From contig JBJMMA010000086.1 in assembly GCA_045805065.1 (NCBI GenBank), positions 1-28,047 on the forward strand: a DNA stretch of 28,047 nucleotides, read 5' to 3'. Both the position numbers and the translations under genes were made by a program. The stretch is from Bdellovibrionia bacterium. GTDB lineage: Bacteria; Bdellovibrionota; UBA1018. Below are positions 7,703 to 26,288 of this stretch, piece after piece; position 1 is the first letter of the stretch; each line of letters starts with the position of its first letter. Under the pieces are notes generated by a model that searched no databases, had not been told where the DNA came from, and saw only the letters and a program-made list of their open reading frames with translations.

Positions 7703-10567
7703 TTATCGGCCCTGAATCGAAAAGCGGATGACCTTGCTATTATTTAAGTCAGTGACATAGAGATTTCCGGATGGATCCAAGGCGATACTTTGCGGGCCGT
7801 TCATCGCTCCATCATCCGCTCCGGAAGCAGCCGCGCCGCCCTTGCACCATCCTGGAGTCAGAGCTCCAACGGCCGCACCAATGCACCCTGTAGCTCCCCC
7901 CGTTGGAGAGCTGCCGATTTTTCCAATCCAGCCCAGGAACGCCCCTGAGGACGCGTTGTATTTGCTGATGCGAGAGTTGTTTCGATCGGCCACATAGATA
8001 TTCAGGGATGTATCCCATGCAATTCCATACGCATTATTGAGCATCCCGTCCCCAGCACCTGAGGTAGAAGTACCTCCCGTGCACCAGCCCGGGGTAAATG
8101 TGCCAACCGCAGCACCATTGCAACCCGTAGCTCCTCCCGTCGGAGAAGTTCCGATTTTTCCGATCCAGCCCAGAAACGCTCCCGAAGACGCGCTGTATTT
8201 GCTGATGCGGTGATGATTTGTGTCCACAACATAGAGATTACCAGCAGGATCCAGCGCTACTCCGCCTGGCGAATTGAGCATCCCGTCTCCAGTGCCCGAG
8301 CCTGACTGCCCACCTTTGCACCAGCCTGGCGTGAAAGCTCCAATGCTCGCACTCGTGCAGCCTGCTGCGCCGCCCGTTGGAACGACAGCAATCTCACCGA
8401 TCCAGCCTTGAAAAATTCCCGACGCGTTGTACTTGACGATTCGGTTGTTAAAAACGTCGGCAATGTATAGATTTCCGGAGGAATCAATCGCGATCCCACC
8501 TATCCCATGAAGAACTCCATCGCCGACGTCATTCATGGTTGTTCCGCCGATGCACCAGCCGGGAGTAGGATCAAAAGCCACGGCCGTTGAGCATCCCGGA
8601 TCTCCTCCGGTAGGAGTAGCGTTGACTCCACCGATCCAGCCTTGGAATGCACCAGACGAATTGAATTTATTGATACGACTATTTGCCATGTCGCCAACAT
8701 AGAGATTTCCTGACGAGTCGAGCGCAATAAACCGGGGCGAATTGAGGGAGCCATCTGCTACAGTACTCGCTTTCGATGTACCTCCCTTGCACCAACCCGG
8801 CGTCACCGTGTTAACAGCAGCACCTGCGCATCCTGCGGCGCCTCCTGTGGGCGAGGTCGCGATTTTTCCAATCCAGCCTTGAAACACTCCTGAAGAATTA
8901 TATTTGTTGATGCGAGAATTGCCCGCGTCGACGGCATAAATATTACCCGCTGAGTCCCGTGCAACACCAGACGGTGAGGAAAGCATCCCGTCGCCTGAGC
9001 CCGAGACAGTTAGAGATGTAGATCGATGCCACGAAAAGTAAGTTGCGACTGACTGTAGCGCACCGGTGAATGATCCTGTCGAACTATATTTACCGATCCG
9101 AGAATTTCCTTGGTCGGCAACATATAGATTTCCTGATCCATCCACAGTGATGGCTCTCGGACTATTGAACATTCCGTCTCCATTGCCTGACGTAGAAGCT
9201 CCGCCTGTGCACCAGCCTGGAGTGAATGTACCGACTGCCGCGCTAGTACAACCAGTCGCTCCTCCAGTTGGGGTGGTCCCAACTTTCCCAATCCATCCTT
9301 GAAAAACTCCAGACGAATCGTACTTCATGATTCGATGCTGGTTTAAGTCCGCCACATAGAGATTGTTGGACGAGTCCACGGCAAGCCCCCAGGGCTGTTT
9401 CGGGCCGATTGTAGAAACACCTGTGTCAGGACGTCCTCCTAAACACCACCCAGGAGTTAATGAATATCTCGGCGCGGAAGTGCATCCGCTTGCTCCCCCG
9501 GTAGGAGTGCTATCAACCGCTCCGATCCAGCCTTGATAGGTTCCAGATGAGTCATACTTAGTAGTGTAATTATTAAAGGCGCTGCTTACGTAAATATTTC
9601 CCAAGGAGTCTAAAGCAATTCCACCTGGGTGATACATTCCACCATTCGTATCGGTGTAATCAGAGTTGCCACCGACGCACCAGCCCGGCGTAAACTGTCT
9701 GAACGTTGCACTCGTACAGCCTGCCGCGCCTCCTGTAGGAGGAGTGAAATAAACGATTCCTATCCAACCTTGAAAAACTCCTGACGAATTATATTTATCC
9801 ACCCGGTTATTATGGCCATCGGCCACGTAGATATTTCCAGATGTGTCAAAAGCAAGAGCCTCGGGCTGGTCCATCGATCCATCACCTATGTCACCCGACT
9901 TACTCGTGCCTCCAGTGCACCATCCTGGGGTGACGGTGCCACCTGCGGCACCTGCGCAGCCTGCCGCACCTCCTGTAGGAGACGTAGCGATTTGTCCAAT
10001 CCAGCCCAAGAACGCTCCCGACGTTACGTTGTATTTACTGATGCGATTATTGCCATTGTCAGCGACGTAGAGATATCCAGATGAGTCCAGTGCGATCCCC
10101 ATTGGAGTGGATAGCATCCCGTCGCCGCTGCCAGATGTCGAAGTCCCGCCCGTGCACCATCCAGGAGTAAATGTACCGACAGCGGCCCCCGCGCAACCTG
10201 CTGCGCCTCCAGAGGGTGAAGTCGCAATCTTTCCAATCCAGCCTTGAAATACTCCTGACGAATTATACTTACTGATCCGATGATTGGCGTCGGAGACGTA
10301 AATATTTCCAGAAGAGTCCCTCGCAATTCCATATGACGCAAAAAGCGATCCATCTCCATTACCGGATACAGGAGTGCTTAAACCCGATGTAAACCCGCTT
10401 TGAAAAGCACTATCTGCGCCGAGACGATAGGGATTGAGCCCGCCTCTCCAATGCGCTCCGAAGTTATAATAACCCGTGGCGCTTGCACTCAAACACATCA
10501 GCTGCCCTAGGCCCAGCCCCAGACAGAAGACTAGCAGTGAATTGGTTGAGGCATTAAGCTTAAGCAT
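7703..10567 (-). CDS. Secreted NHL-repeat protein (12 blades) with 10 Cys-pair inserts
   Basis: N-terminal signal peptide. 12 copies of PxGIAxDxxGNxYVAD..NxRIxKY and 10 copies of GWIG...PTGG..GC-x12-C.GG. Confidence 0.88.
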   Translation of the reverse strand: MLKLNASTNSLLVFCLGLGLGQLMCLSASATGYYNFGAHWRGGLNPYRLGADSAFQSGFTSGLSTPVSGNGDGSLFASYGIARDSSGNIYVSDANHRISKYNSSGVFQGWIGKIATSPSGGAAGCAGAAVGTFTPGWCTGGTSTSGSGDGMLSTPMGIALDSSGYLYVADNGNNRISKYNVTSGAFLGWIGQIATSPTGGAAGCAGAAGGTVTPGWCTGGTSKSGDIGDGSMDQPEALAFDTSGNIYVADGHNNRVDKYNSSGVFQGWIGIVYFTPPTGGAAGCTSATFRQFTPGWCVGGNSDYTDTNGGMYHPGGIALDSLGNIYVSSAFNNYTTKYDSSGTYQGWIGAVDSTPTGGASGCTSAPRYSLTPGWCLGGRPDTGVSTIGPKQPWGLAVDSSNNLYVADLNQHRIMKYDSSGVFQGWIGKVGTTPTGGATGCTSAAVGTFTPGWCTGGASTSGNGDGMFNSPRAITVDGSGNLYVADQGNSRIGKYSSTGSFTGALQSVATYFSWHRSTSLTVSGSGDGMLSSPSGVARDSAGNIYAVDAGNSRINKYNSSGVFQGWIGKIATSPTGGAAGCAGAAVNTVTPGWCKGGTSKASTVADGSLNSPRFIALDSSGNLYVGDMANSRINKFNSSGAFQGWIGGVNATPTGGDPGCSTAVAFDPTPGWCIGGTTMNDVGDGVLHGIGGIAIDSSGNLYIADVFNNRIVKYNASGIFQGWIGEIAVVPTGGAAGCTSASIGAFTPGWCKGGQSGSGTGDGMLNSPGGVALDPAGNLYVVDTNHHRISKYSASSGAFLGWIGKIGTSPTGGATGCNGAAVGTFTPGWCTGGTSTSGAGDGMLNNAYGIAWDTSLNIYVADRNNSRISKYNASSGAFLGWIGKIGSSPTGGATGCIGAAVGALTPGWCKGGAAASGADDGAMNGPQSIALDPSGNLYVTDLNNSKVIRFSIQGR
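7745..10335 (-). repeat. Intragenic tandem repeats of about 235-240 bp (NHL blade plus insert)
   Basis: Recurrent 'atccagcc' and 'gcacca' motifs at roughly 79-codon period. Confidence 0.85.
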
Positions 10568-10761: not shown

Positions 10762-11412
10762 TTATTCGTATTGTTCTAAAGGCCCATAAACCAGGGCCGG
10801 AGCAATGCGCGAGACAATCATTCCGATATTTGCCCACATCAATGGGCCCCAGAGCGGAAGCTCGAAATAGCGAGCATGAGGATAGTACCAGAAGCCCTTC
10901 CAAAGCCCCGAGCTCTCAATGAGAATCCCGGTCAGAGTAAAGAGAGCAACACTCAACATATCTTGTTTGCTGCGGAAAAACGCCACTGCAGAAAGCAGAA
11001 GGGTCGCGAGAAAACCAGCCAGAATCACTTCATCACGAATCACTGAAAAGCTGACCGCGAAAACCGCCGCATAAATCACTGAAGCTTTTCTCTGGCCCTG
11101 TGAAATATCTTTCAGCTGCAACGTGCGCTGAACAAAGAGGCAATAAAACCCCCACATGAAAAGCTCGTTGTAAGGCATCAGCAGAATGTCCTTCTTTGCA
11201 AACTCGAAGACGCCGTTTTTAAGCGCGCCGTAGTTTGAGATGACAAAGATGACATTTACGATAAAGAACTGGATGATTTCAGCCGGTTTCAAGGGCCAGA
11301 AGGCAGCAGTCCAGAAAGCAAGGAGCACAATCGTCTTCAAAACCGTTGAAGAGATGCTCAGTGAAATGAGAATCGTGCCTAGAAGCTGCGCTGCAGGTCG
11401 GAGCATTTTCAT
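10762..11412 (-). CDS. Multi-pass membrane protein (DUF2878-like, internally duplicated)
   Basis: About 7-8 hydrophobic helices, with two similar halves ending G.F.F....PY..L.MWG and G.W.Y.....LPLW.PLMWA. ATGA overlap with the upstream gene. Confidence 0.7.
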   Translation of the reverse strand: MKMLRPAAQLLGTILISLSISSTVLKTIVLLAFWTAAFWPLKPAEIIQFFIVNVIFVISNYGALKNGVFEFAKKDILLMPYNELFMWGFYCLFVQRTLQLKDISQGQRKASVIYAAVFAVSFSVIRDEVILAGFLATLLLSAVAFFRSKQDMLSVALFTLTGILIESSGLWKGFWYYPHARYFELPLWGPLMWANIGMIVSRIAPALVYGPLEQYE

Positions 11413-12686
11413 GACATGGCTTTTTCGACGCGACTGCCTTCAGTTCCAATGAGCTCGGAGTTGAGCGTTGAGATGAACTCCCTCCAGGCCCCTGTCGCAT
11501 TCAGGATTCTGAATCCATAGTATCCGTTGGACACCTTTCTCACGGGCTGCGCGCGAAAACTGAAAACCTCGAAGTTCCCCATGGCGATCTGTACATTGTA
11601 GACCTGATTGAGGCGCAGTCCGCGCTCAACGACGGCGCCAAAGCTATTATCGGCGACATTTTTCACGGTCATCGCAATCGGAGCCAGCCCATGCTCCTGC
11701 ATCAGGACGCGGCCTGCGCACTCGACGTCAAATCGTTTTGATCTTCTGATCTCGCGAACTGGTTCAGTTGCAGACGGCTTTGGAAGATACTTTCGATACT
11801 CGTCAGAATCATAGAGCTGATGAATGATGTGTCTTTCAAAGTCGGAGAATTGAGAAAATGTCTGGGTCTTTTGATTGAAAAAATGATCCAGCAATTCCGG
11901 CGTCATGACAGGATCTGAGATTTTAGCATACGTGCGGTTCGGAAACTCGAAAGTCGGAATTTGGAAGTTACAGAAGTAGTCGTAGAGATTAGTGGTCTCC
12001 GGACGTCCGCCATATTGATTGGCGTACCAGGCAGGCGCCGCCCGCAGATCCAGAATGCCTCCTACGGCAGGTGCGCCATTCACAAAACTATAGTGATCGA
12101 TTTTCTCTTCTTTAATACGCGAGAATCCAAGAAGTGCTTCGTAGAAATCGATCCAGGAAGGATTTACGGAAATGATGAGACAATCCGCGCCAAAGCAGCG
12201 GACACAATACTCATGCATAAACTTGAGTAACGGAAAGAGGATCTCGCCACGCATATGAGAGAATTGGCGATTGACCGCAAGGCCCGAGACCTCGACCAAT
12301 CGGGTCCCTACGCTTCGGTAAGTCGCCAAATCAAAAATTGCATCTGATGGCAGGCCAAAGGAGCCATCCCGGACAAGAGAAAGCGTGCCCACGACCTGAT
12401 CATCCCAAAGCGCGATCAGAGTACTGGTGCTCGGGAGCGCATGATATTTCGTGACGCGCATGCCGGATGGATGAGGCGACATGTATTTTTCCGCAACATA
12501 TGCGTCATGGAGAAGTTTGAACGCGGCAGCAAGTTCATCTTGCGTCTGAGCGAGCTTAAAACGCAGGCGAGGACTTGGATTCCGGTTCAGCCGAATCATG
12601 TTCCGGAAAATATTGTGCCTAAATCGAGTTGGTGTAAGTACTTTCAGGGCCCAGCGCAGCAATGCCCGGAATTTGCCGAGTTTCAT
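11409..12686 (-). CDS. FeeM-like N-acyl amino acid synthase (GNAT) fused to a C-terminal PilZ-like domain
   Basis: FKLAQTQDEL.AAFKLLHDAY, VGTLSLVRDGSFGLP, EVSGLAV, ISVNP...FYEALLGF and VNGAPAV. C-terminal RRSKRF followed by a beta-rich domain. Confidence 0.8.
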   Translation of the reverse strand: MKLGKFRALLRWALKVLTPTRFRHNIFRNMIRLNRNPSPRLRFKLAQTQDELAAAFKLLHDAYVAEKYMSPHPSGMRVTKYHALPSTSTLIALWDDQVVGTLSLVRDGSFGLPSDAIFDLATYRSVGTRLVEVSGLAVNRQFSHMRGEILFPLLKFMHEYCVRCFGADCLIISVNPSWIDFYEALLGFSRIKEEKIDHYSFVNGAPAVGGILDLRAAPAWYANQYGGRPETTNLYDYFCNFQIPTFEFPNRTYAKISDPVMTPELLDHFFNQKTQTFSQFSDFERHIIHQLYDSDEYRKYLPKPSATEPVREIRRSKRFDVECAGRVLMQEHGLAPIAMTVKNVADNSFGAVVERGLRLNQVYNVQIAMGNFEVFSFRAQPVRKVSNGYYGFRILNATGAWREFISTLNSELIGTEGSRVEKAMS

Positions 12687-12738: not shown

Positions 12739-12795
12739 TGTTCTCTGACGTTTTCTGTTCTCGGATGTTCTCTGATGTTCCCCGATGTTTACTGA
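12739..12795. repeat. Array of 10-bp direct repeats, consensus TGTTCTCTGA
   Basis: TGTTCTCTGA, partial CGTTTTC, TGTTCTCGGA, TGTTCTCTGA, TGTTCCCCGA, TGTTTACTGA. An extra CGTTCGCTGA lies at 12832. Confidence 0.8.
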
Positions 12796-12883
12796 GATCC
12801 AGACTGACTGCGAAGCATGAAGAGAACGTCTCGTTCGCTGAGCGGTTGCTAGATCTGACTTTGGCGTCTATATTCTCCTTCAC

Positions 12884-13711
12884 ATGAGCGAGTCGTCGCC
12901 GTTTTATCGCAAGATCCTTGTCGATGAATTTGAGTCCCGGCAAAAGCGAAATCCAAGTTATTCGCTCCGCGCCTTTGCACGCGACCTGGGCTTGCAACCA
13001 TCTAATATTTCAGAGATTTTACGTGGACTCTCCGGGCTCTCCATACAAGCAGGCACCGAAATCGCGACACGCCTCCAGCTCTCGGACGAAGAAACTCAGT
13101 GGTTTGTCCGGTCTATCGAGGCGCATCACTCCAGAGATCTAAGAAGACGCCAAAACGCACAAGCAGAGCTTGCGGCAATCACCTCGCGAAACGGACTAAA
13201 CGAACTTGATTTAGAGCGCTTCAAGATCATCAAGGATTGGTATCATTTCGCATTGCTTGAACTGACGGATACCGTGGGTTTTTCTCCCGATCCCGCATGG
13301 ATCGCAGATCGTCTCAAAATCACGGAAAAAGAAACGAAGGAAGCCATTGATCGGCTGATCGAGTTCAATCTTCTTGAGAGAAAAAAAGATGGCTCGCTCA
13401 AGCAGACCCGAAGTACCTGGGTTTCGGGTGGAGTCCCCTCTCGAGAAATTCGCAAACACCACGCTCAGATCCTTCAAAAGGCGGAAGGCGCTTTGTCTAC
13501 TGTAGATATTGATTCTCGCGACTTCTCGGCGTTGACGATGGCGGTTCCCCAAAGCAAACTCCCCGAAGCCCGTAAGCTGATCCAGGAATTCAGAAGGCAG
13601 TTTGTTCGCCTGTTTGAAACTTCTACTGAACCCAAAGATCGGGTTTTTATCCTGGGGGTCCAGTTCTTTCCTGTTGATGATCCGTCCACTGAAGACAAGG
13701 CACAATCATGA
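12884..13711 (+). CDS. TIGR02147/DUF4423-family protein (N-terminal HTH plus wHTH-like region)
   Basis: RNPSYSLRAFARDLGL..S.ISEILRG, FKIIKDWYHFALLEL, WIADRL, IRKHHAQIL, RDFSALTMAV and LGVQFFP. Confidence 0.88.
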   Translation: MSESSPFYRKILVDEFESRQKRNPSYSLRAFARDLGLQPSNISEILRGLSGLSIQAGTEIATRLQLSDEETQWFVRSIEAHHSRDLRRRQNAQAELAAITSRNGLNELDLERFKIIKDWYHFALLELTDTVGFSPDPAWIADRLKITEKETKEAIDRLIEFNLLERKKDGSLKQTRSTWVSGGVPSREIRKHHAQILQKAEGALSTVDIDSRDFSALTMAVPQSKLPEARKLIQEFRRQFVRLFETSTEPKDRVFILGVQFFPVDDPSTEDKAQS

Positions 13712-14994
13712 ACCCGACATTCAAAACTATCCTGCTCTCTTCTTTAGTAGTCCTTCTTTCAAAGAACGCATCTGCTGTCCATGGAGTCGGAAATGGCGGA
13801 AACGTCATCGTCTGCAAAGACTCCTCCTCAGCAATCCGCTCAGTGGAGATCTTGGATTACTATGAACTGAGGCAAGCCGGAGGAAAGCTCAGGCTCAATC
13901 CGGCGCTTGGCAGCTACTCCGCCATGCTCCAGGAGCTTTTTCAAAGCTGGAAATCGGTCGCTCCAAAGAGAATGGCTCAGTACGAAAAATGGCTCTCCGA
14001 ATTTGAAAAAGACTCAGCCATTTACTCAGGCGTCCAGATCCCACCGATTGAGGACACCGGAGTCATCAACATCCCTGTGGGCTGTGGAATCACGCCTGCT
14101 GCTTTTCAAAGACCCGAGTCGCAGCTCCTGCCTGGCATCAAGCGGTACACGATCAACAAGGATCTCTGGGATCGCATGTCCGAGATTGAGAAAGCAGGAT
14201 TGGTTCTGCACGAGTTGATTTACCGCGAAGGAATCCGGGCCGGTCACCCATCGTCTTTCGCCACTCGCTACTTCAACGGCTATCTGGCTTCGGCAACACC
14301 TCAGCCTATGGAATACGCTCTGGTTGTTCAGCAATTGCCGCTGGAGTGGGTTGAGTTTGGCCAAGGCCTTGTCATCAATCTCGGAACCGCTTACGCAACT
14401 CAAGGCGACGTCGTCTTTCAACGCACATCCAAAATCACCGAGGAAGGATGGATTGCAGGAAAAGACTACGATCCTGCCAAGTATGTTTATCCTTTCAGCA
14501 ATTATCAGAAAGGAACTTACTCAGAGTTCTCTGGCGATGTGAACTCTGAGCATCTCAAGATTCGTTTCAAGTCCCTTTCGCATGAAGCAACGAACAAATC
14601 GGGCCAGATTGAGGTCAGCCACGAAAAACTCGTTCTGACTAATTTAGTCTATACTCGCGTGGCAAGCCTGATGGCGTCTCTGGATGGACTGCAGATGGAG
14701 TTTACTGCACTGCCAACCCAACTCACCGGCATTCAAATGATCAATCAAAATAAGCATCTTGAGTTTGGGATGAGAAGCTCGGACGCACACCCTGCTGCGC
14801 TCGCAGTGAATCCAGGCTCAAGCTTTTACGTCCAGGCAGATGGAAGCCGAATCGAGTCCATCACTCAAATTCTTCCAAGCCGCCGCCCAAATTTTAACGA
14901 AGCTGAGTACGCCTATTATGGCGATGGCTTTGTGACTTCGACCGGCGAAACCTGGATCTACGACTCCAAGCTCAGCAAGTACGTCAAGAAATGA
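13708..14994 (+). CDS. Secreted GNGG-motif protein with zincin-like HExxY (paralog 1)
   Basis: Signal peptide, then GVGNGGNVIVC, LDYYE, INKDLW and KAGLVLHELIYRE...SS..TRYFN. ATGA overlap with TIGR02147. Confidence 0.8.
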   Translation: MNPTFKTILLSSLVVLLSKNASAVHGVGNGGNVIVCKDSSSAIRSVEILDYYELRQAGGKLRLNPALGSYSAMLQELFQSWKSVAPKRMAQYEKWLSEFEKDSAIYSGVQIPPIEDTGVINIPVGCGITPAAFQRPESQLLPGIKRYTINKDLWDRMSEIEKAGLVLHELIYREGIRAGHPSSFATRYFNGYLASATPQPMEYALVVQQLPLEWVEFGQGLVINLGTAYATQGDVVFQRTSKITEEGWIAGKDYDPAKYVYPFSNYQKGTYSEFSGDVNSEHLKIRFKSLSHEATNKSGQIEVSHEKLVLTNLVYTRVASLMASLDGLQMEFTALPTQLTGIQMINQNKHLEFGMRSSDAHPAALAVNPGSSFYVQADGSRIESITQILPSRRPNFNEAEYAYYGDGFVTSTGETWIYDSKLSKYVKK

Positions 14995-16280
14995 GACTTG
15001 CCTGCGCTCTTGGCACTGCACTCCCTGCCGCACTTGCAGCGGTATTTTCGATAACTGGCTATGCAGCCACTGAAGTCGCAAATAGCGCTAATGTCCTTGT
15101 TTGCGAACATCCATCGCGGCCCCTGGAACTTTTAGATTACTTCGAGCTCCGCCAAGCAGGAGGAAAGCTCACGCTCAATCCTACGCTAGGTAACTACACG
15201 GCGGTGCTCAGAGGACTCTTTCAAAACTGGAAATCCGTCGCACCTAAAAGAATTGCTTTATACGAACGGTGGCTTTCCGACTTTGAGAAAGAAGCAGGGT
15301 TTTATTCTGGAATTCAGATCTCACCCAGTAAGGACATTGGAGCTATCGGTATCCCCGATGGTTGCGAGATCGTACCCGCCGCCTATCAGCATCCGGATGA
15401 GGAAATCTTTCCAAATGTAAAACGCTATGTCTTCAGCAAGGACCTTTGGGATCATTTGCCAGAAGTTGAAAAAGCAGGGCTCGTTTTGCATGAATTGATT
15501 TACCGAGAAGCGACTCAAGCTAGGCACTCATCTTCGTATCCCACGCGATATTTCAACGGCTACCTGGCCTCAGCCGCGCCCACGTCCCTGGAATATGCTC
15601 AGATCGTGCAGAAATTGGAGTTCGAATGGGTGGAATTTGGATCAGGTCTTGTCCTGGAGCTCAAAAAAGGCCAAGTCACTCCGTATCCATACCAGCCCCC
15701 GAGGTATTCAAAAATCACCGAGACAGGGTTTGTCACAGGCAATGAGTATAATCCATCCACCTATGACTTTCCTTTTAATGATTATCAGAAAGGAAAGTAT
15801 CTAGGATTTGTCGGGGACGTTTCGTCCGAGCATCTTAAGATCCAGTTCAAATCTTTCTCTCCAGGCACGACTTATATCGACTCAAAGGTGATGATCACCG
15901 GCACTGAGGTGCTGCTCTCGGATCTCAGTAAAACTCGGGTTGAAAACATCTCAGCATCCATAGATCGCGCCTCCGTCGAGCTGAGTCACCTCCCCATTCA
16001 GCTTATGAGTTATCAACTGAGTGTGAACAAGAGTCGCCTTCAGATAAAAGTCGCGACTCAGGACGTGCATCCTGATGCACTCAACGTAAATCCGGCCACA
16101 AGCTTTTACGTCCAGCCAGACGGAAGCATCATTCGCTCGATTACAAGCATCTTGAAGAACGACAATTGCCCGCCTGATTGTTATCAGCCTCAATATGCGC
16201 TCTACGGCGATGCTCTCGTGACTGAGGCCGGAGAAAAATGGGCTTACGACTCTGGCAAGGCCAGGTACATCCGGAAATAA
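14991..16280 (+). CDS. Secreted paralog 2 of 13708..14994
   Basis: Colinear over its full length (LDYFELRQAGGKL, WKSVAPKR, KAGLVLHELIYRE, TRYFNGYLASA, SFYVQ.DGS). ATGA overlap. Confidence 0.8.
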   Translation: MRLACALGTALPAALAAVFSITGYAATEVANSANVLVCEHPSRPLELLDYFELRQAGGKLTLNPTLGNYTAVLRGLFQNWKSVAPKRIALYERWLSDFEKEAGFYSGIQISPSKDIGAIGIPDGCEIVPAAYQHPDEEIFPNVKRYVFSKDLWDHLPEVEKAGLVLHELIYREATQARHSSSYPTRYFNGYLASAAPTSLEYAQIVQKLEFEWVEFGSGLVLELKKGQVTPYPYQPPRYSKITETGFVTGNEYNPSTYDFPFNDYQKGKYLGFVGDVSSEHLKIQFKSFSPGTTYIDSKVMITGTEVLLSDLSKTRVENISASIDRASVELSHLPIQLMSYQLSVNKSRLQIKVATQDVHPDALNVNPATSFYVQPDGSIIRSITSILKNDNCPPDCYQPQYALYGDALVTEAGEKWAYDSGKARYIRK

Positions 16281-16333
16281 AAATGAATGCGGCAAAGAAA
16301 GGACCATCGTCCTCACTTCGCCGCATCGATTTT
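16280..16333. terminator. Probable bidirectional intrinsic terminator between the convergent cassettes
   Basis: Interrupted hairpin ATGCGGC...AGGAC-catc-GTCCT...GCCGCAT (16287-16326), flanked by AAAAT and ATTTT. Confidence 0.6.
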
Positions 16334-16351
16334 CAGGATTTGAACTACTGA

Positions 16352-17161
16352 TTAGTTTGCGAAACGTGCGCAGGCGTCAACGAATGACATGTCGCTGATG
16401 TCCTGGCATTGGCCATTGACTTCAATTGCCCACACGGTTGGCGTGCTTGGCGAGAGCTTGCGGCAATCGGCTTGATTGTTCACAATAGCAACGAGGCCGC
16501 CGCTGCAGTTATCGCTGTGGTAGAATTTCACTCCACCGTGATCGCCGCCTTTGAAAGCTTCGCAGGCATCTTTTGGATTCATGTCCGCGATGTCTTTGCA
16601 TTGGCCGTTGACTTCAACTGCCCAGACGTTGCTGTTGTTCACTACTTCAGCAAAGCGGGAGCAATCGCTGCGACGTCCAACCGATCCCAGCAAGGATCCA
16701 TGGCAATTATCGCTGTGATAGAGTTTAACGCCTCTCATGCCACCGCTGAAAGCCTGGCAAGCTTTGGTGAGAGTAGTGTCCTGGATGTCCAGGCATTGTC
16801 CGTTAATTTTAACAGCCCATGCAGAGTCATTTCCAAGGTGCTCACAGTCGGTGCGTGAGTCCACGACAGCGACAAGGCTGCCACTGCAGGTATCAGATTT
16901 GTAAATTTCGACACGATCGCTATCGTCGTAAGGTGGGTTTGGGCCTGGTCCTGGACCTGGGTTTGGATGATTGCCGTAACAGTTGTAGCTCTTGAAGCTA
17001 GCAACTTCAGCTTCGAGTCTTTGAAGCTCATTCATACATTGAGCAGAGCAGCTGTAGCGACAGCTTGCTGGCAATTCAGCATGCGCGGAAGCGCCTGCGC
17101 CAACGAGAACAGCGGCAATTGCCAAAGCTTGAATCACAGAGTTTTTCAAAACGTCCTTCAT
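16352..17161 (-). CDS. Secreted Cys-rich protein with three ~57-aa repeats
   Basis: GAGGA SD before ATG 17161, signal peptide ending AHA, a PG linker, and 3 copies of V..Y.SD.C.G.L...V....DC......WA..INGQC.DI.D.....AC..F. Confidence 0.82.
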   Translation of the reverse strand: MKDVLKNSVIQALAIAAVLVGAGASAHAELPASCRYSCSAQCMNELQRLEAEVASFKSYNCYGNHPNPGPGPGPNPPYDDSDRVEIYKSDTCSGSLVAVVDSRTDCEHLGNDSAWAVKINGQCLDIQDTTLTKACQAFSGGMRGVKLYHSDNCHGSLLGSVGRRSDCSRFAEVVNNSNVWAVEVNGQCKDIADMNPKDACEAFKGGDHGGVKFYHSDNCSGGLVAIVNNQADCRKLSPSTPTVWAIEVNGQCQDISDMSFVDACARFAN

Positions 17162-17266
17162 AAATATCCTCACCTTTCGACGCATGGTCTATAACACGGG
17201 GCCGAATGGGTCAACTGACGTAAATTACCGACCGAAACGATCCTAGTATTGATGGGCCACTTGGGC

Positions 17267-18448
17267 TTAGAACTGATGGACCACTTGATCCAGACTGATT
17301 GGAGAAGAGCTTGTGATGCTGCTCTCAACCTTAGCGATTGTACGGTAGCTATCCTGAACAGAGATCATCATCGAGATCTTGTTCATGAGACTTACGTCCG
17401 CGTAGTTGTCGTCCACTTGTCCAAGCAGTTCTTTGATCTTGGATCCATTCTTGTCAAAGAAAGCGCGGATCGCTTCGTTGCGCTCGGCTTGCGAGATCTT
17501 CGCGTTGTTAAGTGAATACAAAACGTTCGCGTAGTCGTTGTTAATGAAAGATACGAAATCCTTCATTGCCTTCAACGCCACTTGCTCTCGAGCCGCATCG
17601 CGAGGCTGAGACTTGCGTGCAAACTGATCTGCCATTGCACCCGCGACGTGTCGCAAATACAACTGATCTGGGCTCGTCGATTGGATCGCTAATTCATAAC
17701 GATAAACGTTATACACCTCTCTGCTACCCTCACCGACATAGCCAGTATAAACCATTTCACCGTCGGTCAGCGTATCCGTATCGTAGTTCTTTGGGCTGAC
17801 TGCGAGATTGCATTTCAGGAACTGACGATACCCACGGGTTCTGAGATTGCGAATCAAGTCCCGAATATCTGTCGTCTGAGCGTCAAGATCTGCAAAGGAA
17901 GTGACAGTATCCCCGCGATCAGTCAAACAGGACTTCAGTCTAAATGTCACAAAGCCCACATAAGTATCCGATCCGGATCCAGTGATCTTAGCGAGGTCTT
18001 TTCCTTGAACAAAGGCGCGCCCTTCCATCCCAGTTCCATCTGCAGTCATGCGATCCAAAATAAGTCCGCGCTTCACATCTCTCCAGACCGGCGTGTTGCG
18101 CTGAAGATAAGTGGCAAGCCTGTCTCTATCCCAACGGCACATCGTCGCCCCAGAATCTGATGTCCATTTACCTCCGATGTATTTGTCGCCGTATTGTGTC
18201 GAATGCATCAGGGGTAACTTAATCGATGCAAACTGGAACATTGGAAAGCGTATATTATAGTCTACAACCTGATACTTGAGAGCATCACAGCGCTCATCAC
18301 CAGGGCTACCAACGGAAATTTCACTCGGTCCTATTGTCGGAGATTCATATCTTTCGCCCAAAGTCTGGTCCGCTGTAACCGAAGCTGCATGAGCAGGAAT
18401 CGCGGCAAATACTGTTGTCAGTGCAAGTAAGTTTAAAAACGTTTTCAT
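17267..18448 (-). CDS. Secreted hypothetical protein (tandem paralog B2)
   Basis: Signal peptide ending AHA, AAGG SD, and colinearity with 18471..19679. Confidence 0.82.
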   Translation of the reverse strand: MKTFLNLLALTTVFAAIPAHAASVTADQTLGERYESPTIGPSEISVGSPGDERCDALKYQVVDYNIRFPMFQFASIKLPLMHSTQYGDKYIGGKWTSDSGATMCRWDRDRLATYLQRNTPVWRDVKRGLILDRMTADGTGMEGRAFVQGKDLAKITGSGSDTYVGFVTFRLKSCLTDRGDTVTSFADLDAQTTDIRDLIRNLRTRGYRQFLKCNLAVSPKNYDTDTLTDGEMVYTGYVGEGSREVYNVYRYELAIQSTSPDQLYLRHVAGAMADQFARKSQPRDAAREQVALKAMKDFVSFINNDYANVLYSLNNAKISQAERNEAIRAFFDKNGSKIKELLGQVDDNYADVSLMNKISMMISVQDSYRTIAKVESSITSSSPISLDQVVHQF

Positions 18449-18470
18449 GGCGAATACCTTTCTTTAAAAC

Positions 18471-19679
18471 TCAGTATTGGTGAACCACTTGGTCCAGACT
18501 GATTGTAGAAGAGCTCGTGATACTCTTCTCGACCTTGGCGATCGTGCGGTAGCTATCTTGTACAGAGATCATCATCGAGATCTTGTTCATGAGACTTACG
18601 TCCGCGTAGTTGTCATCCACTTGCGCAAGCAGATCCTTGATCTTGGATCCGTTCTTTTCAAAGAATGCGCGAATGGCTTCGTTGCGCTCAGCTTGCGAAA
18701 TCTTCACATTATTGAGCGAGTAAAGGACATTGGCGTAGTCGTTATTGATGAAAGACACGAATTCCTTCATTGCCTTCAGTGCCACCTGCTCACGAGCCGA
18801 ATCGCGAGGTTGGGCTGTGCGGGCGTACTGATCCGTCATCGCGCCTGAATTATGGTTGGACAAGAAAAGGCGATCTGGAGTCGTTGACTGAATATTCAAT
18901 CGATAAGTGCCATTATCGTACCCGATTTTTTCACCATTGAAGCCGGATCTAAATGATTCGCCATCGTAGCCAGGTGCAACCGTTTCACCATCTGTCAACG
19001 TATCGAGATCGTAATTTTTAGGGTTGACCGTGAGGGTGCACTTTAAGAACTGACGATATCCGCGCGTTCTGAGGTTTCGGATTATATCTCGAACATCGGT
19101 CGTCTTAGTATCGAGATCGGTAAAGGAAGTCACGGTGTCGCCACGGTCTGTCACACAGGACTTCAATTGAAAGGTGATAAAACCCTCGACGGTGTTTGAA
19201 CCCGATGCCGTAATCTGAGCGATATCTTTTCCTTGGACAAAAGCGCGCCCTTCCATACCGGTTCCATCGGCGGTCATGCGATCGAGAATCAGCCCACTCT
19301 TCGCCCCTCTCCAGACAGGGGTGTTGTGCTGAATATAAGCTTTAAGCTTCGCTTCATCCCAGGTGCAAATCTGCCTCGAAGGAGTGTTCCAGCTCCCCTT
19401 CGAAATGTATGAGGATCCATATTCCGGCGAGTACTTCAGAGGCCACTTGATTGACCTGAATTCAAATAACTGAAATTCGGTACTATATTGCACAACCTGA
19501 TACTTGAGATCACCACAGTCTTCGCCACTCGGGATGCCGTAGATGCGGATATTGCTTGGTCCAAGTGTTGAAGACTCATATCTCTCGCCCAGAGCTTGGT
19601 CCGCGGCCACCGAAGCGGCATGAGCGGAGAGACCCGTAAACACTATTGTGAGAGCAATGAGAGCGTTAAGTGTTTTCAT
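18471..19679 (-). CDS. Secreted hypothetical protein (tandem paralog B1)
   Basis: Signal peptide ending AHA. Shares LILDRMTADGTGMEGRAFVQGKD and a near-identical C-terminal helical region with B2. Confidence 0.82.
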   Translation of the reverse strand: MKTLNALIALTIVFTGLSAHAASVAADQALGERYESSTLGPSNIRIYGIPSGEDCGDLKYQVVQYSTEFQLFEFRSIKWPLKYSPEYGSSYISKGSWNTPSRQICTWDEAKLKAYIQHNTPVWRGAKSGLILDRMTADGTGMEGRAFVQGKDIAQITASGSNTVEGFITFQLKSCVTDRGDTVTSFTDLDTKTTDVRDIIRNLRTRGYRQFLKCTLTVNPKNYDLDTLTDGETVAPGYDGESFRSGFNGEKIGYDNGTYRLNIQSTTPDRLFLSNHNSGAMTDQYARTAQPRDSAREQVALKAMKEFVSFINNDYANVLYSLNNVKISQAERNEAIRAFFEKNGSKIKDLLAQVDDNYADVSLMNKISMMISVQDSYRTIAKVEKSITSSSTISLDQVVHQY

Positions 19680-19682
19680 GAC

Positions 19683-20696
19683 TTATTCCTTTCCAACAAC
19701 CAAAGGGTTCTTCGTAACGATTTGATAAAAATAGGAGCCATTATCGGCTTGAACGGACCGGCAGACAGCTCCGCTGAACTTGACGGAGTTGCGGTCTTCT
19801 GCCGCGAGACGCTCATGGCATGCGATAAGCGCATCGATGGATCTTTCGAAAGTATGGTCCACGAGACCCCCACCCAAGCCCATGCTGCTTGCCACGACTT
19901 TCCATTGAAGCTGATCAAGCTCACCTAAGCCAAAGACTCGAAGTCCATAAAGAGACTCAGTCTCCGTAACAGGCATCGTGTGCCAATGGTCTTCGGCAAA
20001 CTCTTTTTCAAAGCCTTTCTTCTTCAGCCTGAGCCGGGTTTGGTCGTTGAATGCTTCCATCACGACGTGTTTGCGATCGCGTTGATAGTAGATGCAATAA
20101 ACAAAGTAATACTTGTCCTCGTACAACTCTTTTTGGCGCGCGCATTCTTGGCCTGCAGTCTCCTCGTTCATTCCTTGATTTGGATTTTCCATTTCGTAGG
20201 TAGCCAAGAGAACAGGAGTCTTGCTTGGCTGATCGCTTCTTCTTTCCAAAAGTGGTTTCATTTGCGCAAAGAGCGGCGTCGATACGGCATAAGCCTGATC
20301 GTTCACGCCGCAAATCCAGAGCATCTCATGAAGAACCAGCTCAAGTCTTGCGAGCTTGTCGGAGTGCTTGTTCCAGGCCTTTGCATCGACTTCGATCGTG
20401 TTTTCAGCCGGATAATTCACCGCGCTTCGAGGACCGTCAGGAAGTTCCGCTTTATCAACGAACTTCACGCGAAGGGTTTGAAGCTTTTGAGCGTAAACGG
20501 CGAGATTTACCGGAAGAACTTGCTGCTTATTGAGCGCGCGAAGCACATCGAGATCCTGATAAGCCAGCGTGACGAATTGCATCTCGTCGAAATCGCCGCC
20601 GTTTCCTGCGCGATCTCCACTTCCAGCCATCGCAGGGGCGATGACCTGCATTTGTGTTGCGATCGCAAGCGCTGCGATCAGTCCTAGTTTCTTCAT
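19683..20696 (-). CDS. Secreted GNGG-motif protein with degenerate zincin-like HExxW
   Basis: Signal peptide ending AMA, then GDRAGNGGD and AVNYP...IEVD..AW...LVLHEMLWICGVND..Y..S. ATGA overlap with TIGR02147. Confidence 0.8.
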   Translation of the reverse strand: MKKLGLIAALAIATQMQVIAPAMAGSGDRAGNGGDFDEMQFVTLAYQDLDVLRALNKQQVLPVNLAVYAQKLQTLRVKFVDKAELPDGPRSAVNYPAENTIEVDAKAWNKHSDKLARLELVLHEMLWICGVNDQAYAVSTPLFAQMKPLLERRSDQPSKTPVLLATYEMENPNQGMNEETAGQECARQKELYEDKYYFVYCIYYQRDRKHVVMEAFNDQTRLRLKKKGFEKEFAEDHWHTMPVTETESLYGLRVFGLGELDQLQWKVVASSMGLGGGLVDHTFERSIDALIACHERLAAEDRNSVKFSGAVCRSVQADNGSYFYQIVTKNPLVVGKE

Positions 20697-21568
20697 TGAG
20701 GTACTCCTTCTCTTACGGTCTTCGTTAATGGGAATAATGCGGATTCAAGTTGATAAACTGTGTCGGCATCCGTGGCTGATCCGAACTCAGCCATGAACTC
20801 GTCTTCAAATTTTCTGACAAACGCTTTCATGCGCGGAAGATCCTGGGATTTCACGGATACGGTGATTCCCGAAACCTGGCGCTCGCTCAGGGGCACCGCA
20901 CGAATGGATGTGCGCGCCATCGAGAGCACTTCTTCATGAAAACGTTTCAAGGCTTCGCTTGCCACGTCGTCAGTGGTGTTGAGCGGCTTGCCCGTCAGCA
21001 ATATCTGCTGAGTTTCGGGATCAACAGAGAGAAGCCCAAGCTCAGACATGGTCTTGATTGCGCTGGATACGTCACGAGGCGTGACCTTGAAGCGAAATTT
21101 GGATGCGATCCAGTCTGCGTCCATCCGAAAACTTTTGAGCTTTGCGAACTGGCGAATCCCGTAAAACCACCAGTGCGAAATCGCTGCAAAAGTTTTGTCA
21201 TCGAGGAGGACGAATTGAGCCTTTGGGCTCATCCGGCGCAAGCGATCCATGATGACCACTTTGCGTGCGGGATCTTGATCCGCCTTTGAAAGAGAGATCA
21301 GGTCTTCAAAATAGCGGCGCTCTTTCTCGTTGAAGTTAAAATACTGAATGAGCTTTTCAGTGATCTCAGGACCCGCTTCGCGCGATCCGTTTAGAATCTT
21401 TAAAATCGAGGTGCTGTTCTTCAGGCCAAGCTTTTTGGCCCAAGCACCGTAGCTCCAGCCCTTTTGCGTCCGCTTCTTATCGGAGTAATGGGTCTGCAGA
21501 AATGCCCGGTAATCCGTGAAGCTGAAAAGCTCGCTACGTGGAATGTGATTTAAGGCGTCCGTTTGCAT
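20693..21568 (-). CDS. TIGR02147/DUF4423-family protein (second copy)
   Basis: FTDYRAFL, WSYGAWAKKLGL..STSILKILNGSR, SHWWFYGIR, WIASK, LKRFHEEVL, ERQVSGITVSV and VYQLESALFPLT. Confidence 0.88.
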   Translation of the reverse strand: MQTDALNHIPRSELFSFTDYRAFLQTHYSDKKRTQKGWSYGAWAKKLGLKNSTSILKILNGSREAGPEITEKLIQYFNFNEKERRYFEDLISLSKADQDPARKVVIMDRLRRMSPKAQFVLLDDKTFAAISHWWFYGIRQFAKLKSFRMDADWIASKFRFKVTPRDVSSAIKTMSELGLLSVDPETQQILLTGKPLNTTDDVASEALKRFHEEVLSMARTSIRAVPLSERQVSGITVSVKSQDLPRMKAFVRKFEDEFMAEFGSATDADTVYQLESALFPLTKTVREGVPQ

Positions 21569-21702
21569 GCGGCGCTTGTATAAAAGGCGCAGGCATGTCG
21601 CAAGGCATTATGTGGCCATTTGCCATCTTTTTACAGGCAACTTGCCTGCACCTGAAAGCATTTAAAGACAACGTATACCTAAGATATTAAATACTTAGGC
21701 AA

Positions 21703-24147: not shown

Positions 24148-25953
24148 TCAGTTCTTCTTATGCGACTGGAAAGCAAACGGGTAAATGACCGTTGTCGGCT
24201 GCCCGTTCTCGGCCGCTGGGAATTGCATCGACTTGATGACATCCCGGACACATCCCTCAAGCTTGTCAAAATGAACATCCGTGCGCAGCAGCTGCACGGA
24301 AACGACCGGCCCGGTCGGGGAAATCTTCCACTGGTAGAGGATACGGCCTGCAAGATCCGAGTTCACTAAAAGCGCGCGCTCATAGCAGTTTCGGATCTGG
24401 CTTCGGTACTTGGCAATGACGGCTCGAACGACGTCGCGAGTCAGGCCCCCACTGGTCTGAAACCCTCCGCTTCCGCTGCCATCCAGGCCACCGCTCCCGC
24501 TTCCATCCCCACTCCCGGCGCCGGTTCCGAGAACGGAGCCCGCGGCAAAATCCTTCGAGGAGTTTCCGCCTGGCCCGGCAATCGGGCCCGTCGACTTGGG
24601 ATTGAACTCGTGATTTCCGCTCAACGTGGTTGAGGCCTGAGACAGGCTTGAGCTATCGCCTTTCGGAGAGCCTTTGGATCCTTCACCCAGATCGCCAATC
24701 GCGCCGCTCTTCAGAACAACTTTTCCCTGATCTCCGGACACAGCAGACGCGATCAAGCCCTGATCCACGATCTGATCGGCCTTAATGCCGCTTCCCTTCG
24801 GACCGCCGGATGTCTTTTTCAGAGCACCCAGAAGTCCCATGGTGTTGACGTCTTTGGGGGCAGCTGGTGCCGTCGCAACGTTCAAGCCTGATTTTTTAGG
24901 CCCTGGATTCTGCTTTACCTTAGGCTTTGCCAGATTGGCTTGAGAGTTCTTTTGAACAACCGGAGTTGCGATCTCCTTTTGTTTGCCACCCTCTACAACC
25001 GTAGCCTCTGCCGGCACGGCTTGCTTTTGCTCCTGAACCGGAGGAGGTGGCGGAATCAGTTGGGGCTTCGGAGGCGGTGCCTCCTCCAACCTTTGAATTT
25101 CCACTTTTGCAATACGGGGCGGCGCTTCCTGGGCGATCTGATCACTCACGGGATGCAGGTTGCTGAGCACAGTGATCGACGCTCCGATCAAGAGTGCTGC
25201 CGCAAACAAGCCGACGAGAAGCTTGTCTTGAAAGAAGTCGGTGCGGACTTTCGGAGGATTAGTCCAGGGAACGAGTCGCAAAAAGAAGCGCATTCCCTTC
25301 CATCTGACTTCAAGCAGATCATTGGGCCAGAGATCCGGAGACTTCCCGGCTTCCACCTGAATTCCCTTTTGGTAAACCACAGCGCCTGGCATTTCGCTCG
25401 TCAGGACCCGTATCGTTTCAGAGGCCTTTTGCTCCGGGTTCCAGAGAATCTTGAACTCAGGAACCTTTTCAAAGGGCTTTTGCTTTTTCACAAAGCGGCG
25501 GGGACGAAGGTGCAACACTTCTTCAATTGCGCCACTATCGGAGCGTCCTTGAACGACTTCGAGAACATAGCCGCTCTTGCTGATTGGCTTCAGCCCTGCC
25601 GCGCCTTGCGCAGGCGCCAGCGTGTCGCTGATCCCACCGCCATCCCACTCGGTCGTCAGTTTGTCTTCACGGCATAAAATCTGAAAGCCGCGGAACTGCA
25701 AGGGCTCATCACTGAGGATCACTCCCTCGCCGACTTCTTCAGCGGACTGGGAAATATCAAAGATGGACCAGTAGCCCGTGCTCGGGTCGAACTCGCCGCC
25801 ACCTACCCACTCCAACATGAAGTGTACAGGCTTGATTCCGCTGGCTCGCAAAACCACGTCACAGGCGGGAGATCGCCCAATCGTTACAATTGGACGTGTC
25901 AGGCCTGCGCTTGCCAGCTCGAGCGTGCCACGACGAATAATCACTCTTCTCAT
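24148..25953 (-). CDS. GltG/PglI-AgmX-like protein: FHA-like N-terminus, TM helix, Pro/Gly linker, TonB-C-like C-terminus
   Basis: TIGRSPACDVVL..S..H, one TM segment, poly-Pro and GLLGAL, then GGL.RDVV..VI.....QIRNCYERAL...LAG..W.I...G.V...C....I....FP....VIYPF.F. ATG 25953 overlaps the upstream TGA. Confidence 0.82.
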   Translation of the reverse strand: MRRVIIRRGTLELASAGLTRPIVTIGRSPACDVVLRASGIKPVHFMLEWVGGGEFDPSTGYWSIFDISQSAEEVGEGVILSDEPLQFRGFQILCREDKLTTEWDGGGISDTLAPAQGAAGLKPISKSGYVLEVVQGRSDSGAIEEVLHLRPRRFVKKQKPFEKVPEFKILWNPEQKASETIRVLTSEMPGAVVYQKGIQVEAGKSPDLWPNDLLEVRWKGMRFFLRLVPWTNPPKVRTDFFQDKLLVGLFAAALLIGASITVLSNLHPVSDQIAQEAPPRIAKVEIQRLEEAPPPKPQLIPPPPPVQEQKQAVPAEATVVEGGKQKEIATPVVQKNSQANLAKPKVKQNPGPKKSGLNVATAPAAPKDVNTMGLLGALKKTSGGPKGSGIKADQIVDQGLIASAVSGDQGKVVLKSGAIGDLGEGSKGSPKGDSSSLSQASTTLSGNHEFNPKSTGPIAGPGGNSSKDFAAGSVLGTGAGSGDGSGSGGLDGSGSGGFQTSGGLTRDVVRAVIAKYRSQIRNCYERALLVNSDLAGRILYQWKISPTGPVVSVQLLRTDVHFDKLEGCVRDVIKSMQFPAAENGQPTTVIYPFAFQSHKKN

Positions 25954-26288
25954 TTCGAGGGCCTCACTGCGCTTTTTCCATTCGACGTACCCGTTGGCGT
26001 GACCTCGCGATACACGGGTTTCCAAGGGGCTTCGTGCTTTTGGAACTCATTGAAGTTTTTCCGACCGTATATGACGGCCTGAAGGCTAGGTTGTTGATTA
26101 CCGAGCTGGATAAAGAGATCTGGGTTCGACTTTTCGCCTTCGATCACGTCAGCATCGAAATTCAAGACACTCGGAGCAATACGCGAGGACGGGCCTGGCG
26201 CACGCTTCTGTGGAGCCTTGTCCGCAGCATGAACAGGGAAAATCGAAACAGCAGCTAGAAGTGCACCGAGACTGATAAAAGTTTTCAT
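25950..26288 (-). CDS. Small secreted GltF/CglF-like protein
   Basis: Signal peptide ending VHA, motif LNFDADVIEGEKSNPDLFI, ATGA overlaps on both sides, and a position directly before the gltG-like gene. Confidence 0.7.
   Translation of the reverse strand: MKTFISLGALLAAVSIFPVHAADKAPQKRAPGPSSRIAPSVLNFDADVIEGEKSNPDLFIQLGNQQPSLQAVIYGRKNFNEFQKHEAPWKPVYREVTPTGTSNGKSAVRPSK

Follow-up and report, generated by a model that had tools for sequence, protein, structure and literature searches.

RRNPP systems (Rap-Phr, AimR-AimP, PlcR-PapR, Rgg-SHP) are built from a regulator gene that overlaps the gene of an exported peptide precursor, and occur as many cassettes, with orphan regulators among them. In the FlgM/FliA and ExsE/ExsC/ExsD/ExsA systems an exported protein signals export status to a transcription factor, while sites of the C-protein type that end shortly before a -35 box lead to activation. 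TIGR02147 (Fsuc_second), or DUF4423 in Pfam, is a catalogued family without an assigned function: TIGR02147/Fsuc_second was absent from the literature searched, and DUF4423 appeared there only as table entries in one proteome paper. The present work deals with two TIGR02147 genes, regA and regB, and with the exported proteins encoded beside them in a stretch of 28,047 nt from a Bdellovibrionia bacterium (assembly GCA_045805065.1, contig JBJMMA010000086.1, positions 1 to 28,047; hereafter the window). No account of a pairing between such a regulator and an exported gene was found in the literature searched, subscription journals and bioRxiv supplements being outside its coverage.

In the genome that contains the window, 32 family matches merge into 28 TIGR02147 loci, which the regulator tree divides with full support into clade A (15 members, including regA and regB) and clade B (13 members). 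All 15 clade A genes are directly followed by a gene encoding a signal peptide and a Gly-rich start (the tag), with a 4-base overlap in nine cases, and 14 of these 15 partners also carry a domain with a conserved His-Glu motif (the HE domain). Clade B is arranged differently: none of its 13 members has a tagged gene downstream and 12 have a divergent tagged gene instead, which is a tag-plus-HE gene about 120-250 nt away in 11 cases and a small Gly-tagged gene in one; the remaining member faces a secreted gene that is untagged and truncated where the contig stops (read by eye). The reverse search gave the same picture: 29 of 30 HE-domain genes sit in a regulator cassette, the 30 being 25 first partners, four later cassette genes and one gene about 220 nt from a contig start (the last profile round returned 31 matches, and a canonical HExxH protein at E 0.019 was left out). 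At one locus (L004, G000:C191:6000-7940) the first partner is tagged without an HE domain, and HExxH is complete in the second gene. The signal-peptide calls come from a crude hydrophobicity rule of our own, used only beside matched controls because it over-calls (1554 of 3884 genes).

The pairing extends well beyond this genome. In the phylum sample, TIGR02147 occurs in 33 of the 40 genomes besides this one; all 14 control genomes lack it. Among 89 evaluable clade A regulators of that sample, taken from the top of the list and thus biased to high scores, a signal-peptide gene is coupled to 56, with a strict tag in 42 and a loose tag in 51. A second set was drawn from 475 loci of one subfamily in named records (Myxococcota, Desulfobacterales, Nitrospiraceae, Planctomycetota, Chitinispirillaceae, Bdellovibrionota), of which the 80 best were taken; it comprises 81 regulators, 75 of them coupled and 70 with a strict tag; its partners are nearly all lipoproteins starting with C-x-GT[ED]xGNP. 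Control genes treated by the same procedure gave 18 strict and 63 loose tags in 2581. The coupling of regulator and exported gene, which the original prediction held to be conserved, is thus found far above chance (strict tag 42/89 and 70/81 vs 18/2581). Clade B regulators elsewhere have a divergent signal-peptide gene in 42 of 47 cases (background 44%, by the crude rule), a loose tag in 21 (background 88/2545) and an HE domain in 11. Moreover, HE-domain loci of other genomes, five of which were already in the earlier sets, have a regulator upstream in 26 of 29 cases by script and 27 by eye; orientation matched the clade every time, and the gap was about 650 nt in three. In five large genomes with eight regulators, the DNA pattern of the tag matched three times, each time directly behind a regulator. 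Records of Desulfobacterales, Nitrospiraceae and Chitinispirillaceae contain the module as well, and no third conserved gene recurs among about 215 loci. At one locus (L178:1600-1815) about 200 bp of hexamer-like repeats lie between the regulator and its tagged partner.

The features of the window locus are listed below in window coordinates.

12739..12795, + strand: array of GTTCTC-like half-sites with a period of about 10 bp, between regA and a divergent FeeM-like gene
12822..12838, + strand: degenerate candidate operator of regA, a 7-nt core between inverted arms, located 7 nt 5' of the -35 box
12846 and 12869: regA promoter boxes, TTG of the -35 box and -10 box, respectively
12884..13711, + strand: regA, TIGR02147/DUF4423 regulator of clade A (HigA/C-protein-like XRE HTH, winged helix, C-terminal alpha/beta domain)
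13708..14994, + strand: A1, first partner (signal peptide, tag, zincin-like HE domain with HExxY, beta-rich C-terminal domain)
13780..13803, + strand: Gly/Asn tag of A1, a low-confidence coil in the model
14991..16280, + strand: A2, paralog of A1 (51% identity), LVLHE kept, tag degenerate
16281..16330, no strand: hairpin separating the convergent units, likely a bidirectional terminator (by folding z-score)
16352..17185, - strand: B4, secreted Cys-repeat protein, probably outside the module
17267..18448, - strand: B3, secreted accessory protein, paralog of B2, untagged
18471..19679, - strand: B2, secreted accessory protein, untagged
19683..20696, - strand: B1, first partner (signal peptide, tag, HE domain with HExxW, unrelated C-terminal part)
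20592..20618, - strand: Gly/Asn tag of B1
20693..21568, - strand: regB, TIGR02147/DUF4423 regulator of clade A
21592..21649, - strand: candidate operator of the regB promoter, a palindrome (21633-21649) plus more GGCA/TGCC half-sites

Most of what had been read from the window at the outset holds. Both regulators belong to the family (TIGR02147 149 and 176 bits against a cut-off of 50, DUF4423 also being passed), with 25% identity between them. The ATGA overlaps of regulator and partner lie at 13708-13711 (regA/A1) and 20693-20696 (regB/B1), and an additional one joins A1 and A2 at 14991-14994. GNGG and LVLHE, claimed for both first partners, are at residues 28 and 165 of A1 and 31 and 120 of B1; the two proteins are barely alignable pairwise (E 0.039), although one profile fits both. 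The six inner genes, described as all secreted, each show a signal-peptide-like N-terminus by the crude rule; none of the six proteins has a further hydrophobic stretch after the signal region, and none attains a cut-off in Pfam or NCBIfam. The two tandem paralog pairs were also recovered, at 51% (A1/A2) and 71% identity (B2/B3), and the hairpin has folding z-scores of -5.5 and -5.9 on its two strands. As to orientation, the regulators do face each other, but they were called divergent and are in fact convergent. Nothing special attaches to the mirror image: eight regulators of the genome form four close pairs, the window's being the sole convergent one, so that the arrangement looks incidental. 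The suggested phase variation was not borne out either, with neither notable inverted repeats at the flanks nor a notable simple-repeat tract, and no recombinase was found among 13 scanned window proteins.

The common unit of the partners is the tag and not the HE domain. The idea that the HE domain is part of the core of the cassettes finds no support outside this genome, where 12 of 89 loci of the phylum set and one of 81 of the second set carry it; 122 tagged partners fall into 46 BLAST clusters. The window partners are folded proteins of 337-428 aa, and tag-only open reading frames (ORFs) occur elsewhere: a partner of 71 aa (L033:2321-2533, + strand) consists of a signal peptide and two tandem copies of the nine-residue tag. 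A duplicated tag variant was also seen at L030. The tag codons vary synonymously and follow the GC content at third codon positions (GC3) of the gene (rho 0.57, n=103), which shows that selection acts on the protein; a role of the tag as a DNA site was ruled out on this ground. In 79 lipoproteins its position varies less from the lipidated Cys (SD 2.9) than from the start codon (SD 7.1), and in 51 of them it lies 6-7 residues from the Cys. Across several phyla, GNP tags have Gly at position -4 in 92% and Thr at -3 in 88%, with flanks directly past the tag conserved at no more than 25%.

Position in the cassette matters as well. In this genome the tag is gone in four of five later paralogs, including A2, and elsewhere it is found on 31 of 37 first-position homologs vs three of 16 in other positions; of these three, one is in fact the first gene, set off by a repeat insert, another matches only marginally, and L160 is a true exception. 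Away from regulators, the tag pattern occurs on 22 of 1513 exported proteins, mostly unlike the tag. Tag variants tend to follow regulator lineage: on the tree of the regulators there are 23 changes of tag class, vs at least 58 in shuffles (151 rows), a difference that kinship alone can give, and among 65 HE partners the Asn tag is found on 31 of 44 in clade A and one of 21 in clade B, with one parser mis-pick in each group and five HE loci without an adjacent regulator left out. The deep co-phylogeny of regulator and cargo domain implied by the original prediction received no support, regulator clade switching 15 times on a weakly supported partner tree. A predicted complex of the regulator dimer with the L033 tandem-tag peptide (score 0.01 against a mark of 0.32, controls not folded) counts neither way.

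Regarding the HE domain itself, the A1 model (pLDDT 91.7) shows a zincin-like N-domain and a beta-rich C-domain. The H and E are invariant, and HExxH is incomplete in the window (HExxY in A1 and A2, HExxW in B1); a His at +4 occurs in one of 57 A1 homologs, none of 150 representatives and one of 25 own-genome partners (two unparsed). Since the second His is nearly always missing, the domain is probably not a standard peptidase. Zincins take many of the top rows in structural alignments of the HE domain, but with low scores, Z 4.0-4.7 (best Z 4.7, rmsd 4.7, 138 aligned): M35 aspzincins, minigluzincins and SprT share the invariant H and E, the difference being the missing second His. Foldseek gave nothing for A1 at E 0.001, a profile search of solved structures gave E 0.18 or worse for the domain, and no member of the HE alignment matched Pfam better than E 0.0016. 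The family counts 7,496 representatives at E 0.001, some of which are perhaps true zincins, and 2,645 clusters (50% identity) at E up to 1e-10.

The regulators are proteins of about 270 aa (275-291 aa) without a signal or membrane segment. In the AlphaFold model (pLDDT 88.9) an XRE HTH, closest to HigA (Z about 8), precedes a winged helix (Z as high as 9.0) and a short alpha/beta tail, and Pfam places DUF4423 on residues 106-264. Foldseek gave nothing for the regA model at E 0.001; the only structure covering most of the C-terminal two thirds is Kfla_6221 (PDB 4g6q), an ArsR-like winged helix with an added C-terminal domain, a weak match (TM 0.52 by target, 168 columns, E 0.036) to a protein that lacks the N-terminal XRE domain and for which no literature mention was found. 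A TIGR02147 match also lies within a 946-aa open frame at L068, possibly a fusion. Many clade A regulators of two other genomes (G017 and G032, family f11) are orphans without a coupled gene. Orphans as a group keep the consensus of the N-terminal HTH, and their winged-helix and C-terminal parts drift. Residues His193, Ala200, Ser215 and Arg237 were tried as correlates of partner presence and dropped: the trend had the expected direction and was not significant on independent pairs.

Set against the described systems, the module resembles RRNPP in the overlap of regulator and exported gene, the many paralogous cassettes, the orphans and the duplicated peptides (as in L033). It differs in that no TPR sensor domain, the peptide-binding part of RRNPP regulators, was seen in the model or profiles, in its Gram-negative hosts and in a peptide that heads the mature part of what are mostly large, folded proteins; the adjacent exported gene with a short conserved motif is there, yet in the window it encodes a folded protein of 337-428 aa. 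As with FlgM and the Exs proteins, a transcription factor would learn of export status from an exported protein, but through Sec/lipoprotein signals and not type III secretion, with a tag shared by unrelated payloads and up to 28 pairs per genome. C-proteins (C.AhdI, C.BclI) offer a weakly similar XRE HTH (E 0.004 for C.BclI), an operator beside their own -35 box, made of inverted arms on either side of a conserved spacer, and coupling to the controlled gene; here, the protein has about 275 aa with two further domains, and regulators of 275-291 aa precede signal-peptide genes where a restriction endonuclease gene would be expected. Nor does the partner look like the protease of BlaI/BlaR1 or ImmR/ImmA systems: its motif is incomplete, a signal peptide is present and there is no further membrane segment.

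The promoters of the regulators add a further line of evidence. Upstream of many clade A genes there is a 5-nt arm, a C[AG]CTTTG-like core, an inverted arm, 7 nt and the TTG of a -35 box; the arms differ by locus, and six of the seven best sites lie 55-56 nt 5' of the start codon. A candidate operator score of at least 13 is reached by seven of 15 clade A promoters vs eight of 1658 controls, core and score having been derived from the same promoters, and a genome scan returned ten matches, seven of them clade A promoters, where shuffles gave 0-2. The enrichment of GAATAC, found upstream of 51 of 84 regulators sharing one recognition helix (7.4 expected; 14 of 82 others), is independent support for the operators. 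No clade B promoter exceeded a score of 11 for the clade A-type operator, and in other genomes the threshold of 13 was reached at three of 90 and one of 77 loci, near background; this operator architecture is therefore limited to one subgroup. The inverted repeats at many clade A promoters fit the autoregulation originally proposed. By analogy with C-proteins, a candidate site that stops 7 nt short of the -35 box would point to activation. Arms similar to those of the regB palindrome recur at the sister regulator L042 (read by eye). The GTTCTC-like array upstream of regA has five copies, vs three or fewer in all but one of 1658 upstream regions, the pattern having been chosen after seeing the array and the exceptional region probably being the same one. 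It is possible that the array represents extra regA sites, and, as it sits between regA and the FeeM-like operon, regA may control that operon too.

On the basis of sequence and models, a TIGR02147 gene would be a dedicated, cytoplasmic, local transcription switch for one exported partner and accessory genes. A clade A regulator would bind, probably to activate, inverted half-sites just 5' of the -35 box of its own gene, its partner being translationally coupled, whereas a clade B regulator would stand head-to-head with its partner across one shared promoter region. The Gly-rich tag, just past the signal-peptidase site, would be the feedback ligand of the winged-helix/C-terminal part, sensed either while still on the unexported precursor, which would make an export monitor, or as a peptide that has been clipped off and re-imported, and the remaining partner (HE pseudo-zincin, beta-propeller or other lipoproteins) would be exchangeable payload. 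The sequences show the gene pairing, the tag with its position and its conservation at the protein level, and the operator-like sites; DNA binding, the sign of regulation and the contact of tag and regulator are what we infer here. An autoregulated switch with the partner's tag as feedback ligand is a reading that we put a little short of an even chance. More tentatively still, TIGR02147 proteins may be peptide-sensing factors of Gram-negative bacteria with a non-TPR fold, responding to a ligand of about seven residues at the mature N-terminus of arbitrary exported proteins and forming up to dozens of private feedback circuits per cell, which would tell whether a particular surface or secreted protein has been exported or clipped. 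With the same tentativeness, operator arms and tag variants would diversify to separate these circuits, and some partners would have been reduced to pure pheromone precursors.

Several points weigh against the tag as feedback ligand. Regulator and mature tag are in different compartments, so that contact needs a pre-export or re-import step; release of the tag from a lipoprotein would need two cuts; and a place next to the lipidated Cys is just as much to be expected of an envelope sorting signal. The tagged paralog of L160 sits upstream of its own regulator, about 33 of the 89 clade A regulators of the phylum sample are orphans without a coupled partner, and among the 47 clade B partners of other genomes just 21 show a tag, even by the loose definition. 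With kinship taken into account, neither the match of tag and clade (p 0.5, independent pairs being too few) nor the loss of His193 in orphans (92% vs 58%, p 0.25) is significant. The operator core was drawn from the promoters it scores, and both window promoters are degenerate, at 11 of 15: at least 126 of 1658 null regions reach the 11 of the regA site, which lies 57 nt from the start codon. Furthermore, a Mantel-type correlation of recognition helix and operator was not significant (rho 0.16, p 0.08, n=19).

Four other explanations were weighed. In the main rival, which we consider unlikely though far from negligible, TIGR02147 would be an ordinary local (auto)regulator with another ligand, and the tag would be read extracytoplasmically by a machine for export, anchoring or surface display whose genes lie elsewhere. 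Lipoprotein sorting signals sit at a near-fixed distance from the processing site, as the tag does, and the tag remains on the exported side after cleavage; yet paralogs exported from one and the same operon mostly go without it, exported proteins away from regulators seldom carry it (22/1513, mostly unlike), no gene for a shared machine lies nearby, and tag-only partners carry nothing to deliver. The compartment problem would be solved if an unlinked inner-membrane or periplasmic sensor or protease read the tag and relayed the signal without direct contact, in a BlaR1/BlaI- or anti-sigma-like manner, and the one-to-one pairing and clade-linked tag variants fit such a relay, which we nevertheless hold to be improbable: one relay would have to tell as many as 28 paralogous pairs apart, the loci share no recurring sensor gene, and a second membrane segment is missing from the window partners. 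There is very little to be said for TIGR02147 serving chiefly as antitoxin or chaperone, one that would bind and neutralise a harmful exported partner at the precursor stage and autoregulate in the manner of HigBA-type modules. The N-terminal HTH is indeed nearest HigA and the translational coupling is one-to-one, but the partners form 46 unrelated clusters that include tiny peptides, HExxH is missing in the HE domain and clade B is not co-transcribed. Marginally fainter is the prospect of the tag being a passenger, a flexible Gly linker inherited beside the regulator as payloads are swapped; low complexity, low-confidence coil in the model and physical linkage to the regulator gene would be expected of it, whereas the strong conservation of Gly (92%) and Thr (88%) across phyla, next to flanks at 25% or less and freely varying synonymous sites, would not.

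As regards the other genes of the window, B4 starts 81-105 nt past B3 and may be a separate unit; its homologs were found in 11 of 200 other genomes, without a TIGR02147 gene within 1.5 kb in the nine loci read. A TTGACC box and an extended -10-like box 5' of B4 (17186-17220, - strand, read by eye) suggest a promoter of its own. B2 and B3 are rare accessory genes: B2 has weak matches in two of 200 other genomes and no usable match in the structure atlas, and a distant paralog comes after the partner gene in another regulator cassette (contig C188). Divergent from regA, at 10762-12686 (- strand), are two overlapping genes, one for a FeeM-like N-acyl amino acid synthase and one for a membrane protein, followed at 7703-10567 (- strand) by a gene for a secreted NHL-repeat protein of 954 aa with regular Cys/Gly-rich inserts between the repeats. 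The cluster at 24148-28047 (- strand), with an FHA/TonB-C-like protein, a small lipoprotein-like gene and a TPR-like protein, is one that we take to be like gliding-motility genes.

A tractable test organism exists, since Bdellovibrio bacteriovorus HD100 expresses DUF4423 proteins: at least six were detected, some with stage-specific peaks in the predatory cycle (PMC12546842). Bd3700, listed there under unknown function, rises by 2.67 log2 at 4 h and its neighbour Bd3701 by 0.49 log2 at 3 h (PMC12546842), while Bd3758 peaks at 1-2 h and its neighbour Bd3757 has the opposite profile (PMC12546842, supplementary file 3). That Bd3701 and Bd3757 are partners of Bd3700 and Bd3758 may be taken as a lead only.

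The pairing of regulator and tagged partner suggests an undescribed way of linking an exported protein to its own switch. It gives the long-catalogued TIGR02147 family a testable job, with a predicted operator, a target gene and a candidate ligand, and groups a large unannotated family of exported proteins (the 2,645 clusters mentioned above) under one rule. If the tag were a sorting signal, it would still be an unexplained export motif; if it is the ligand, then Gram-negative predators, myxobacteria and sulfate reducers would possess peptide-based transcriptional feedback with a fold unlike that of RRNPP.

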